Source of the DNA: a virus
Lineage: Duplodnaviria; Heunggongvirae; Uroviricota; Caudoviricetes
IMG/VR virus record: IMGVR_UViG_2778261161_000002
Reading direction: 5' to 3' (one strand)
Length of the DNA stretch: 64,000 nt
In this document: positions 38,832 to 49,241 of the stretch, one piece after another
Layout of the letters: each line of letters opens with the position of its first letter
How positions within the stretch are numbered: the stretch's first letter is position 1
Position numbers and translations under genes: made by a program
The notes under the pieces: model-generated
Database searches by the model: none
Told to the model about the DNA's origin: nothing
Seen by the model: only the letters and a program-made list of their open reading frames with translations

Positions 38832-39070
38832 ACCGCCTGACCAATCCGGCTGGCATGGGTATCTTTGGATACTGTTCCGTCTTTAGCCAGCTCCATAAGA
38901 ATTTTGCGCAAATCTGCCGAACGCCATTCTTCATCAGGAAATTCCTTCTCCATTGCCAACCGCAGATTCCAGGTTGCCATCCTGAATGGATATTCCCCGC
39001 CGAGAGCTTTATCTTGCAGGGCAGCCCGGGAACGCATCACCTGCAAAACCTTCTCTTTTACATCCATCAT
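38810..39070 (-). CDS. Hypothetical protein, 86 aa
   Basis: ORF track. Confidence 0.4.
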   Translation of the reverse strand: MMDVKEKVLQVMRSRAALQDKALGGEYPFRMATWNLRLAMEKEFPDEEWRSADLRKILMELAKDGTVSKDTHASRIGQAVWRLEVR

Positions 39071-39987
39071 TCCGCCTCCTGCGGCGGTTCTGGTAGCGGC
39101 ATCCAGTGAGTTACTTTCGATGCCGGTTCTTCCCCATCGTCAGTAACTGCCCACCATTTGTTTCTCGACCAATCGTAATACCCTTCGAAGGTATTGCACT
39201 CAGTCCAGCCGTAAGACTTACCCCAACACCAAACATACTGTTTATCGTTCGGCATTCGCTCACTACAGCTTATCCAACTATCCGGAGTTCCCGGAGAGTT
39301 GCCATTTACATCGAAGTTTGGCTCTGCGTCCTGAACCAGGAGGATGTAACCATTCTTGGCCGTATCAAGTTCTAACGCCTCGGTGACGGTGCCGAAATAG
39401 CGATTACCTAAATCAGCATCACAAGTGCTTACATCAATGGAAACTTCCATGCCTTCGATTAATTCTGGCAAGTTGTAAGTTTGGCTTACAGGTTGGCTAC
39501 CCTGAAGCATGGCAGCGTGGCAGGCTTCATCAACCATAGCTTCTACGTTTTCGAGAAGTACGTAACTGTACTGCTGCCCACTAACCCATTCTTTTCTGCG
39601 AGGTAATGCGCGTGGGTCCGCTACAATGGTTCGCAAACGTTCCAGAACAGCAGGCACTACCGGCTCTACTGCCAACTGACTGGCATATTTGTTAATGGTA
39701 ACGATAAGCTCTTGCTCGGCCTCATCCAGACAATCACCGATACCTCGCCTGTCACCGTCAAAATCATCGAAATCGGCACGAATCCTGGCAACCTCCCGGA
39801 TTGCGGACAACACTTCACCAGGAATAAGCGGAGAGTTGCCCGATAGTACATTCTGCTCCAGTGATGCCAGAGCAATTCGTGCCAGTTCTTCCGCTTCTTC
39901 TGCTGGCAGTACAACGTTGCTACCAGGTCCGTATGTTTCGCGCCACTGCTTGATTGTCAGCAGTCGCTCTTTGGTAATAGTGGTCAT
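39067..39987 (-). CDS. Hypothetical protein, 306 aa
   Basis: ORF track; N-terminal paralogy with 37251..38000. Confidence 0.5.
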   Translation of the reverse strand: MTTITKERLLTIKQWRETYGPGSNVVLPAEEAEELARIALASLEQNVLSGNSPLIPGEVLSAIREVARIRADFDDFDGDRRGIGDCLDEAEQELIVTINKYASQLAVEPVVPAVLERLRTIVADPRALPRRKEWVSGQQYSYVLLENVEAMVDEACHAAMLQGSQPVSQTYNLPELIEGMEVSIDVSTCDADLGNRYFGTVTEALELDTAKNGYILLVQDAEPNFDVNGNSPGTPDSWISCSERMPNDKQYVWCWGKSYGWTECNTFEGYYDWSRNKWWAVTDDGEEPASKVTHWMPLPEPPQEAE

Positions 39988-40428
39988 AGTTAGTTACTCT
40001 CCATAGTCTAATTTAACAAGTCGGCATTTGAGATATCCAAAATTCTCTGGCTTGGCATCTCTTAAATAAAATTCTTCAGGGAGTTTCCCCCTTATTTTTA
40101 ATCTGCATAATTCTGTAAAAAACAACCCCCTATGATTTACAGGCTCACAACGCGGCATTATCACAAACAACCCAATCCTGCTACCTGATATCACAGGACA
40201 TAACGCGGCATCGTTAATTGTCGACATTTGGCGCTCCTGCAAGTTAGCCAGCAAACCATGTAAAAATAGTTTCCATGATTTAAATGTTGGAATTTTTATC
40301 ACGTAATGTCGCAAAACTATTACTACACGCGTTGCACCACGCCGGTTAATATAAGCTCGCCTGAAGTTTGTCACGGTCTAATCTCCACCCTCTGAATCTG
40401 ACAGAGTTCGCGGTGTGTTAACGCCATA

Positions 40429-40926
40429 TCACTCTCCTTTGATGCGAATGCCAGTGGTACTCATTCTCCTGATTTCCCAGAGCACACGAGGAACACCACC
40501 GTTTCCGACCGGATCGCGTTTACTCCGCAGGGCGACGCTTGATTCCGCCCAGCTTTTTCTTGGAGGAAGCTCTTTCACACGAACAAAACCAGCTGCGCGA
40601 AGAGATGCTCCTGATTCATCTGCCTGGGTGTACGTAATACAACGTTGATAACCCATAGCTTTTGCTGCCCGCCAGATAGCACCATAAAGCGCGCTGTTAG
40701 CGTTGCGTTCTCCTGTGGTACATGTGCGATTTACTTCAAGCGTTAATCCATCGTCCAAATGTCGTGCAACAGGTCTACCGGCTGTCGCCACACCTATCAA
40801 TTCTCCGGCATCATTTCTCAGACCAATGCTGAATTTATGCCCCACCGGGGGTTTATTGTGTCGGTGATGTCTGGATATAAACGCCTTCGCAACACGAAGA
40901 GTAACCGGTGAAATCTGCACTCTCAC
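40429..40926 (-). CDS. Hypothetical protein, 165 aa, ends GIRIKGE
   Basis: ORF track; 3' end shares 25-bp direct repeat with next gene. Confidence 0.45.
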   Translation of the reverse strand: MRVQISPVTLRVAKAFISRHHRHNKPPVGHKFSIGLRNDAGELIGVATAGRPVARHLDDGLTLEVNRTCTTGERNANSALYGAIWRAAKAMGYQRCITYTQADESGASLRAAGFVRVKELPPRKSWAESSVALRSKRDPVGNGGVPRVLWEIRRMSTTGIRIKGE

Positions 40927-41399
40927 TCTCCTTTGATGCGAATGCCAGCGGCGCGTGGCACATTAACTTCCACGATGCGCACTGTTGGTTTGTACATCTC
41001 AATTGCTGTCAGCCAGTCAGTTCCTGTCATGCGCTTTTCTGCATCGCCATTAGTCCACTGAACTGGTACACCAATAGCCTTCATCGCGATTTCTATTTCC
41101 CCGGCAATGGCGCTTTTTCCGCAACCAGTAAAACCAGATACAACGACAAGAACTTCGCCTTTTGCTGGTTTTATTTCCCGCGCCTCCACCTCTGCAATTC
41201 GGCACATAGCATCGATATTTGTGTCTTCCTGGCGTTTAACTTCATCCAATAATGCCAACGCGATATCTGGCGAAAAGTGCTTCATAAAATCGTTAAGCGC
41301 ATTAATTCGCTGATCGAAAGGCATTACAGGCGCTTCACCAGCAATTTTTGTTTTTTCAGCAATTTCACGAAGCTTTTGATAGTCAATTTTGTTTGTCAT
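40923..41399 (-). CDS. Hypothetical P-loop-like protein, 158 aa, ends GIRIKGE
   Basis: GFTGCGKS; ORF track. Confidence 0.45.
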   Translation of the reverse strand: MTNKIDYQKLREIAEKTKIAGEAPVMPFDQRINALNDFMKHFSPDIALALLDEVKRQEDTNIDAMCRIAEVEAREIKPAKGEVLVVVSGFTGCGKSAIAGEIEIAMKAIGVPVQWTNGDAEKRMTGTDWLTAIEMYKPTVRIVEVNVPRAAGIRIKGE

Positions 41400-42274
41400 G
41401 CCACTACCTCTTCGAATTTCAACTCCAATTGGTCACCCCAGATTTCACATGATTCGGAACACGAACCAGTATCAAACCGCTTGGCCTGCACCATCGCCTG
41501 ATACAAATTTCTGTAGTCGCTGTCGGCATACATTCTGGCAATCCCGTCAAGCGTCAGGTGACCACGGTACATAACGTCTTTACCTGTTCTGCGATGACCA
41601 TCCCTGACGTGTTTGCCTGTAACCAGTTCATTAAAAACCCGCATCAGACCTGGTTCGTCTTTACATGCAAGCCCCAGCTTTTGCGTTGACTTTTTGATGC
41701 AAAAAACACAGTTCCCGAGGTGCTCCGGGATTTGCAAATCAAAAGGTTGTTTTCGCCACCACCGGATAACATCCGACTTATCAAAATCTGACAGCTCGGC
41801 AAGATACCGGACGCCCGGTTTCGGTTTCAGCCTACGGGGTTCGTCCGCACGAATACCCAGCCATGTGATGTAATTCCCTCGCCCAAAATGGTCATCGCAA
41901 TATTTCGTGAAAGGGGTGAGTTTTAGCCTGTCAGTACAGAACGCGCCGCCGATGTATGGCGTACCGTACTTTTTAACCATGTCCATAAACGGTTTAAGCA
42001 CCGGCATTCGCGTCTGAATATCCTTTGGTTCCCATTCCGTATAACCATTTGGCTGCCCAAGTTCTGGATTTATATCGACCTGCAACACCGTTAGCGGTAC
42101 ATTCCAGAACTTCACAACCTCACGAATAAAGCGATACGTCAGAGGATGTTCACAGCCGGTATCCATAAAAATGAAATGGACGCTAGCGCCAGCTTTTCGC
42201 TGTGCTTCCATCAGATGAACGAGATAAGCCGATGTTCGTCCACCTGAAAAGCTGACGACTTGATGCATACTCAC
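41396..42274 (-). CDS. PAPS reductase-like (PP-loop ATP pyrophosphatase family) protein
   Basis: PP-loop SFSGGRTS near N-terminus; Cys-rich C-terminus. Confidence 0.6.
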   Translation of the reverse strand: MSMHQVVSFSGGRTSAYLVHLMEAQRKAGASVHFIFMDTGCEHPLTYRFIREVVKFWNVPLTVLQVDINPELGQPNGYTEWEPKDIQTRMPVLKPFMDMVKKYGTPYIGGAFCTDRLKLTPFTKYCDDHFGRGNYITWLGIRADEPRRLKPKPGVRYLAELSDFDKSDVIRWWRKQPFDLQIPEHLGNCVFCIKKSTQKLGLACKDEPGLMRVFNELVTGKHVRDGHRRTGKDVMYRGHLTLDGIARMYADSDYRNLYQAMVQAKRFDTGSCSESCEIWGDQLELKFEEVVA

Positions 42275-48662: not shown

Positions 48663-49241
48663 ATGCAGAAACAGAGCTATTGGGAGAAACAGAGACAAAA
48701 AGCCATGCAAAAATTGGCTGACCCAGCCTGGCGAGAGGAACAAAGGGCAAAGCGCCTTCAACAAGCTCAACGCCAGCAGCAGCGAGCGAGAGAAAAAGCC
48801 GCATCGCCTGAATATCGGCAAAAGAAAATTGAAAAAGCAAAGCAATATGAACAGCGGAGAAAAGATAAAGCTGTATCCGCTCCGCCCAAAAAAACACGCA
48901 CGTCACGCGGCCTGAAGGGCAGATCACTCACAGCCGATGAACGCCGGATACAGACCGCTATCGGTACTCTCCCCTGCATTGCCTGCCATATTCACGGGCA
49001 ACATAGCCCAGTGGTATCCCTGCACCATATCTTCGGGAGAACGGCAGAGAACGCACATAAATATGTCCTCCCTTTGTGTAAATGGCACCACCAGTACGCA
49101 GCGCCAGCCGAGGTCCGAGAACAATATCCCTGGCTGGTCCCTGTTCATGCTGATGGAAAAATAGGCGGAAAAGCAGATTTCATACGGCACAATGCCGATG
49201 AAATGGCGTTGTATCAGATGGCGATTGAATTAATAAATTAG
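48663..49241 (+). CDS. Ref-like HNH endonuclease with basic disordered N-terminus
   Basis: K/R/Q-rich N-terminal 90 aa then CIACHIHG ... HHIFG ... CKWHH metal-binding pattern. Confidence 0.5.
   Translation: MQKQSYWEKQRQKAMQKLADPAWREEQRAKRLQQAQRQQQRAREKAASPEYRQKKIEKAKQYEQRRKDKAVSAPPKKTRTSRGLKGRSLTADERRIQTAIGTLPCIACHIHGQHSPVVSLHHIFGRTAENAHKYVLPLCKWHHQYAAPAEVREQYPWLVPVHADGKIGGKADFIRHNADEMALYQMAIELIN

Follow-up and report, generated by a model that had tools for sequence, protein, structure and literature searches.

The 64,000-nucleotide (nt) record IMGVR_UViG_2778261161_000002 of a virus of the class Caudoviricetes (the whole stretch of DNA that was analysed, hereafter the window) carries on its minus strand two adjacent genes, one Ea22-like and the other a member of the XF1762 family, that close with the same 26 nt. 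Our reading, to which we assign a probability of about two in three, is that this repeat represents a gene-boundary joint of the ea22 family found in temperate phages of enterobacteria, a coupling unit in which the ribosome-binding site (RBS) of the following gene lies within the last codons of the preceding one, and that the joint was captured by the XF1762 gene and is the exchange point for a precise cassette.

The repeat and the two genes that it closes

The window contains exactly two occurrences of the 26-mer TCACTCTCCTTTGATGCGAATGCCAG (plus-strand reading), at 40429-40454 and 40923-40948, and in a repeat search the pair extended to 29 nt with one mismatch at a copy spacing of 494 nt. Dinucleotide-preserving shuffles never gave a match to it (0 of 100), even when up to three mismatches were allowed. 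Each copy constitutes the final 26 nt, stop codon included, of an adjacent minus-strand open reading frame (ORF), and the copies show no difference at any synonymous site. In the coding sense the motif is CTGGCATTCGCATCAAAGGAGAGTGA, i.e., CT GGC ATT CGC ATC AAA GGA GAG TGA, which encodes GIRIKGE followed by the stop, with the Shine-Dalgarno (SD) sequence AAGGAG inside the K-G-E codons. The observed anatomy is as follows:

40923..41399, minus strand: gene B, 158 amino acids (aa), Ead/Ea22-like according to Pfam PF13935, phrog_250 and the names of its RefSeq homologues
40429..40920, minus strand: gene A, 163 aa, XF1762 family with a Mom-like GNAT fold, according to NF045478, phrog_1384 and the fold match
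40923..40948, minus strand: joint copy 1, end of gene B; SD at 40933-40928, stop at 40925-40923; extends to 40951 with one mismatch
40429..40454, minus strand: joint copy 2, end of gene A; SD at 40439-40434, stop at 40431-40429; extends to 40457 with one mismatch

The observed family assignments place the two genes apart. Gene B matched Pfam PF13935 (Ead_Ea22) with 28.8 bits against a cut-off of 27 (E = 2e-6) and phrog_250 with E = 5e-33, and its RefSeq homologues are named ead or Ea22-like. Its N-terminal part is the conserved Ea22 segment and its C-terminal end reads ...VNVPRAAGIRIKGE, so that the product closes with ...AAGIRIKGE (here and below, protein ends are written up to the stop codon). 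Gene A matched NCBIfam NF045478 over residues 3-136 (204 bits, cut-off 50, E = 7e-61) and phrog_1384, annotated as 'Mom-like DNA modification protein' (E = 1e-41); the Pfam Mom model stayed below its cut-off on gene A (22.2 vs 27.1), and the Ead_Ea22 domain (PF13935) was not found in this gene. The AlphaFold2 (AF2) model of gene A, with a mean pLDDT of 85, has a GNAT fold whose top PDB match in Foldseek was the phage Mu Mom protein (8bv8, TM 0.70); sequence searches of the PDB with genes A and B returned no significant matches, and the fold search alone was informative. The final strand of the model comprises residues 145-151 (RVLWEIR), and residues 152-163 (RMSTTGIRIKGE) form an appended tail, ending ...TTGIRIKGE, that is modelled with low confidence and no secondary structure. 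Gene A truly starts at the second GTG (40920) and not at the position where the ORF list begins it (40926), because the P2-like phage PhiR44_2 has an ATG there and the family alignment begins MxIxPITL. A literature search under the name 'XF1762' found no paper.

The tandem of an Ea22-like and an XF1762 gene with both copies of the motif is present in at least 15 independently assembled complete Escherichia coli genomes at a coverage of at least 80% of window positions 40330-41100, and all 30 genome matches listed run into or through the upstream copy (query end 615-771). The sequence-only reading had described a 25-bp direct repeat and had named an assembly artefact as the finding that would undo it. 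The existence of the repeat and the GIRIKGE end of both proteins have been borne out, while the coordinates given were one base low and the repeat measures 26 nt and not 25; an assembly artefact is excluded because the identical tandem recurs in independently finished E. coli genomes. Considering also the shuffles and the analogous tandems with other tail sequences in five more genera, the probability that the repeat is an artefact or a chance occurrence is negligible.

The ea22 gene end and the tail of the XF1762 proteins

Scanning viral contigs with the exact 26-mer returned at least 120 contigs, and among the matches listed nearly all ORFs closed by the motif belong to the Ea22 family, XF1762 being the only non-Ea22 gene that ends in it. 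The Ea22 ORFs with the 26-mer have a common N-terminus (..I[DN]YQALREAAEKA..) and at least 11 unrelated C-terminal modules, all ending AGIRIKGE. The ea22 gene of phage lambda also closes with the exact 26-mer (Ea22 end ...HRYYGVGGQWVQDAGEYLHMMSDAGIRIKGE / ...MMSDAGIRIKGE); the contig protein ending HRYYGVGGQWVQDAGEYLHMMSDAGIRIKGE was identified as lambda Ea22 since it agrees with the published length of 182 residues and the loop 152-HRYYGVGG-159 (PMC10834534). Mosaicism of the ea22 genes has been reported, as has a K/R-G-E end in every Ea22 protein, given as of 'significance unknown' (PMC7093339; PMC10834534); the products of genes B and A both end in KGE. Judged from these sequences, the 26-mer constitutes the conserved 3' terminus of ea22-family genes, and its second copy stands on an unrelated, normally tail-less Mom-like gene.

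The survey of XF1762 homologues (best 120 of 5,653) indicated how unusual this tail is. In most of them the core ends ...GNGGVxRVLWEIR(R) followed by 0-3 residues, the typical length is 153-154 aa, and the tail ...STTGIRIKGE / RRMSTTGIRIKGE was present only in the E. coli type. As XF1762 proteins normally end WEIRR plus 0-3 residues, the GIRIKGE tail can be considered an add-on. Moreover, the window allele and a tail-less Klebsiella allele (ending WEIRRMK) share TGG GAA ATC AGG AGA ATG A, after which the window allele switches to the tail. Lineage-specific matching was observed in six enterobacterial lineages, each with an XF1762 tail that agrees with the 3' end of its immediate upstream neighbour:

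Window (E. coli type): upstream end AAGIRIKGE, XF1762 end TTGIRIKGE, 26 nt shared exactly
Klebsiella: upstream end AAGIKVEAE, XF1762 end AAGIKVEVK, 23 nt shared exactly
Salmonella: upstream end VGIQVIEGEGQ, XF1762 end AAGIQVIEGEDGE, 26 nt shared exactly
Enterobacter: upstream end DGIKLQIEGE, XF1762 end TTAGIKLQIEGE, 31 nt shared exactly
Cronobacter: upstream end AGINLETGGE, XF1762 end KSIETGGEA, 16 nt shared exactly
Entomohabitans: upstream end AAGIKWEAE, XF1762 end TAGIKWEAE, 27 nt shared exactly

As a background, the longest string shared in tail-less or non-enterobacterial loci was mostly 6-10 nt, with one match of 15 nt, and tail-less XF1762 alleles occur where another gene stands between Ea22 and XF1762. 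The tail is fused in frame in all cases, and the fusion point lies past RRM in E. coli, past RR or RS in three lineages and in mid-tail in Cronobacter; these differing fusion points require at least three independent captures. The scan of one genome per species yielded 21 XF1762 loci, so the cross-lineage statistics are small. In the Klebsiella prophage, genes for KwaA and KwaB (Kiwa defence-system families) lie beside the Ea22-XF1762 pair, on the opposite strand and about 300 nt downstream of XF1762.

The shared tail could be a functional C-terminal peptide of both proteins, involved in interaction, oligomerisation or degradation, with the DNA identity being secondary. This would fit the in-frame fusion in all six lineages, the alternation of hydrophobic and charged residues in strand-like tails (GIRIKGE, GIKLQIEGE, GIQVIEGE), the retention of the +GE end by all Ea22 proteins (PMC7093339) and the conservation of the 5' half of the motif beyond what an SD sequence needs. 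However, most of the 120 best XF1762 homologues lack a tail, the tail is unstructured in the low-confidence part of the AF2 model, and the two copies in the window agree at every synonymous site. Besides, the tails differ widely by lineage, yet their nucleotide sequence always agrees with that of the neighbouring gene, unrelated operon genes ending ..KGE, ..GEAE or ..GKE have only the SD part in common, and the need to stay in frame is equally explained by termination at the TGA beside the start codon. A functional peptide is therefore quite an unlikely explanation.

Sampling that was anchored downstream, and was thus blind to the motif, separated two layers within the 26-mer. The 76 loci with the downstream gene MALTHRELCQI... 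included 28 with the exact motif, four with one mismatch and two with five mismatches; the remaining 42 have a different, non-Ea22 upstream gene (...NHLRTKGE) with only the last 12 nt, AAAGGAGAGTGA, in common. This indicates that the 3' half AAAGGAGAGTGA travels with the downstream start as a predicted RBS-plus-stop unit and that the 5' half (AGIRI) is Ea22-specific, and the proposal that the whole 26-mer is merely the RBS of the downstream gene was discarded, since only the last 12 nt go with the non-Ea22 upstream gene. In other genera, operon genes end ..GEAE, ..GKE and ..VKGE; their last codons are purine-rich and SD-like, and the starts overlap. The window has the anatomy of coupled gene pairs, in which AAGGAG is found 6-7 nt before an ATG or GTG and the stop adjoins the start: after copy 1, the GTG of gene A (40920-40918) lies 2 nt past the stop and 7 nt past the SD, and after copy 2 an ATG (40427-40425) lies 1 nt past the stop and 6 nt past the SD. 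The calculated anti-SD duplex energy ranged from -8.8 to -10.9 kcal/mol for every tail variant. Additionally, no stop occurs within the motif in either of the two remaining frames, which means that only an in-frame reader terminates beside the next start codon. At the motif, searches for a promoter, a terminator and a stable RNA structure found none, with folding weaker than in shuffles (z = +1.05). A Chi site was also considered and rejected, as the joint has GCTGGCAT and not GCTGGTGG.

Reassortment and proposed cassette exchange at the joint

The flanks of the motif were observed to reassort extensively. The 121 exact instances listed, compared over 60 nt per side, fall into 13 upstream and 23 downstream classes that occur in 56 combinations, including 67 quartets with all four combinations (four-gamete test), and in 115 of them an ATG or GTG stands exactly 1 nt past the TGA. 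Presence/absence polymorphism was observed as well: in the P1-like phage JL22, a single copy of the motif joins the same Ea22 C-terminal module directly to the same downstream sequence, and gene A is absent, so that gene A plus one motif copy makes up a clean insertion/deletion difference. The XF1762 cassette is found at about 98-99% identity in P2-like (PhiR44_2), P22-like (Kapi1), lambdoid and D6-like backgrounds, and its homology with PhiR44_2 and Kapi1 stops no more than a few bases from the joints. In D6-like plasmids whose upstream sequence is 98-99.9% identical, divergence from the window begins exactly at the joint, where they have variant ends (...GIRIKEGE; ...GIRIKGEEHANKTRR, with the stop lost; and a lambda-type module, ...MMSDAGIRIKGE), and the Ea22-like protein of phage D6 ends ...AGICIKGDAGEQNDEKP. 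As in a conserved boundary, a short sequence is shared between unrelated flanks and the break-points between related genomes coincide with it.

In phage D6 (locus L138, 2970-3617) and in one D6-like plasmid (locus L220, 3125-3625), the TGA of the joint is lost and the gene reads on for 8-9 codons, overlapping with the next gene.

The sequence-only reading had offered two interpretations, a module-exchange junction typical of mosaic phage genomes or a shared cis element, and both are supported by these data: homology breaks at the edges of a motif whose 13 upstream and 23 downstream classes reassort, and its 3' half, which even a non-Ea22 upstream gene has in common with it, combines an SD with a stop 1-2 nt before a start. 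The comparison with related phages for alternative cassettes, suggested as a check, was run and returned JL22 without gene A and the variant ends of the D6-like plasmids.

Recombination within the joint is indirectly suggested by the four-gamete patterns and by its length. The minimal pairing segment (MEPS) has been reported as 23-27 bp for Red-beta and 31-34 bp for RecA (PMC3945230), and the 26-nt joint falls inside the former range and below the latter. Under the reading that we favour, each translation-initiation region of the operon genes would lie inside the last codons of the preceding gene, and AAAGGAGAGTGA, with its RBS within the K-G-E codons, its stop and a start 1-2 nt on, would act as a termination-reinitiation (translational coupling) unit. 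A new gene placed before the downstream gene would then have to carry the last 12-30 nt of the preceding gene and be read through in frame to the stop, because the genes are tightly packed and downstream expression would depend on the joint; this requirement would explain why a normally tail-less XF1762 gene ends GIRIKGE. Rare illegitimate joins that satisfy both conditions would be retained, which would account for the several fusion points. Once a gene has a local joint, it could be exchanged by homologous recombination with any phage having the same joint. As XF1762 is bracketed by two joints, a single exchange would delete the gene precisely, leaving the JL22 arrangement, and the reverse event would insert it. 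Insertion, deletion or swap of the cassette at the joints could thus proceed without disturbing the expression of the neighbours.

It is also conceivable that the repeat is the scar of one past junction, formed by illegitimate recombination plus selection only, and no longer serves as a substrate for recombination. At least three fusion points of the tail to the XF1762 core point in this direction, as do the variant joints GIRIKEGE, GICIKGD... and GIRIKGEEHANKTRR, which indicate that non-homologous events occur here, and it has been argued that most phage mosaic boundaries lack conserved sequences (PMC3029335). Nevertheless, the reassortment of upstream and downstream classes around an invariant 26-mer, the nearly identical cassette in unrelated backbones with break-points inside the joints and a length inside the Red-beta MEPS make a mere scar unlikely; this alternative also overlaps with the coupling-unit and exchange-point reading, in which illegitimate events likewise found each joint.

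Direct repeats on both sides of a single gene could instead stem from a dedicated mobile element, such as a transposon, an integron-like cassette or a homing element, as its target-site duplication or its recombination site, and it is true that the gene is present or absent among related genomes and that the same cassette occurs in four phage types. However, the 163-codon GNAT-fold gene is all that lies between the repeats, which enclose no gene for a transposase, integrase or nuclease, and the repeat search found no terminal inverted repeats. A transposon target-site duplication and an integron attC cassette were rejected, as neither a recombinase nor inverted repeats nor a hairpin-forming site was found. 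The 'repeat' is moreover the normal ea22 gene end in at least 120 contigs without the cassette, and the fusion points vary between lineages. The 16-31 nt shared in the six lineages far exceed typical target-site duplications. A dedicated mobile element thus appears very improbable.

Several points weigh against the reading of the repeat as a coupling unit and exchange point. As many as 13% of shuffles of the same purine-rich 32-mer reach an anti-SD energy of -9 kcal/mol, the motif being only modestly better, and SD function does not account for the strong conservation of the 5' half (AGIRI). We infer SD use, coupling and the acting recombination pathway from the sequences. Homologous recombination reassorts flanks and cannot create joints, hence illegitimate events are also needed. 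In lambda, the motif is kept at the end of ea22 though no gene starts right after it, which shows that it can persist without a coupled downstream gene. Finally, in Intestinirhabdus alba (locus L222, 1501-1965) XF1762 stands right behind an Ea22-like gene (...AAAGIGKGE), yet has the native tail-less end WEIRRVV; adjacency therefore does not force tail sharing, and the notion that an XF1762 gene directly behind Ea22 always shares its tail was abandoned.

Relation to known systems and genomic context

Morons carry their own promoter and terminator. The XF1762 cassette resembles them in being a single accessory gene, present or absent between similar genomes, with a candidate function in host interaction or DNA modification; unlike them, it has neither promoter nor terminator and would depend on operon transcription and translational coupling.

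Short conserved 'boundary' or 'linker' sequences at lambdoid module junctions belong to the modular evolution framework of Susskind and Botstein and include the boundary sequences of Clark et al. (both summarised in PMC3029335). The joint is like those sequences in being short, conserved among heterologous genomes and located at a gene boundary, with coinciding break-points and reassorting flanks. It is unlike them in lying inside coding sequence (the last 8 codons), in doubling as the RBS of the next gene and in having been captured by an unrelated gene, which gave rise to a cassette flanked by direct repeats.

The PeSL mobile regulatory cassettes of T4-type phages, in which exchange between nearby copies forms mini-circles (Arbiol et al., 2010, PMC2839356), offer another parallel, as there too accessory ORFs in hypervariable regions are flanked by recurring short expression signals, and recombination explains insertions, deletions and replacements (PMC2839356). 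PeSLs, however, consist of an intergenic promoter and a stem-loop terminator, whereas the joint is coding and would act in translation, without promoter, terminator or stable structure; a regulatory cassette of the PeSL type was accordingly rejected, no promoter or terminator having been found at the motif. A broader proposal would make the joint the attachment point of a cassette-exchange system common to lambdoid, P22-like, P2-like and P1/D6-like temperate phages, in which accessory genes that gain a local joint would become bracketed and be moved as expression-ready units by phage single-strand-annealing recombinases, possibly via small circles as in the T4 PeSLs, with XF1762 as the first passenger identified and its tail adapted to the local joint in at least six enterobacterial lineages. 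We consider this extension possible, if doubtful.

The '+GE' motif of Ea22 proteins (Dydecka et al., 2020, PMC7093339) has the same three terminal residues as the proteins described here. It was defined as a protein motif (PMC7093339), whereas in the window AAA GGA GAG TGA reads as an SD plus a stop, which is also found in non-Ea22 genes, and the conserved block covers 26 nt compared with 9 nt for the '+GE' codons. The joint would thereby offer a nucleotide-level explanation for the unexplained '+GE' end of Ea22, namely the RBS and the stop codon of a coupling unit. Besides, the locus is a clean natural test case for whether mosaic junctions arise by homologous exchange at boundary sequences or by illegitimate recombination plus selection, with both signatures at one site: an invariant, heavily reassorted 26-nt island and at least three independent captures by an unrelated gene. 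The position of the 26-nt length relative to the minimal lengths of Red-beta and RecA makes the pathway testable by simple crosses, and the joint suggests a route for a candidate DNA-modification gene through Stx, P22-like, P2-like and P1/D6-like phages. Overall, the significance of the finding is modest, since the feature is of an ordinary kind, albeit an unusually clean example, to which the explanation of '+GE' and the repeated capture of the joint by a Mom-like gene are added.

The window corresponds to a D6-like phage-plasmid (61% coverage and 95.6% identity to Escherichia phage D6), and the nearest plasmid records are of about 92-93 kb. The joint belongs to a long, tightly packed minus-strand accessory operon with DUF968, ASCH-like, PAPS-reductase family, Ea22-like, XF1762, phrog_4301 and DUF551 genes. 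Downstream of gene A the following features were found:

40395..40454, minus strand: 60-nt block that many Stx and lambdoid phages and JL22 carry with 100% identity, made up of copy 2 plus the 11 codons MALTHRELCQI
40371..40427, minus strand: 18-codon ORF MALTHRELCQIQRVEIRP, whose stop codon shares bases with the GTG start of the gene that follows (GTGA)
39994..40374, minus strand: downstream gene, 126 aa, phrog_4301 (function unassigned), in translational overlap with the 18-codon ORF

JL22 and Stx phages have a 171-aa gene that begins with the first 11 codons of the 18-codon ORF, and an identical 18-codon ORF occurs in plasmid pZ1323HEC0010-2 (L220) behind a different upstream gene. This ORF constitutes a further mosaic joint, located some 30 nt downstream of the first.

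The variable C-terminal module of gene B contains a Walker-A-like GFTGCGKS and gave weak matches to adenylyl-sulfate kinase and other P-loop proteins. Directly upstream of gene B, a PAPS-reductase family gene (41396-42274, minus strand) gave weak DndC-like and PAPS-reductase matches, and this gene and the Mom-like one may make up a DNA-modification cluster. Two genes downstream, a 306-aa protein (39067-39987, minus strand) has a C-terminal DUF551 domain; one Ea22 variant, V2, has been reported to carry DUF551 as its C-terminal domain (PMC10834534). DUF551 thus appears to be a portable domain, present in the window on a separate gene. An ORF located 7.7 kb from the joint (48663-49241, plus strand) contains a RecA-dependent nuclease domain (PF16786, E = 1e-34). 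We take PF16786 to be the family of the recombination-enhancement function Ref of phage P1, and this ORF might have a bearing on recombination at short homologies.

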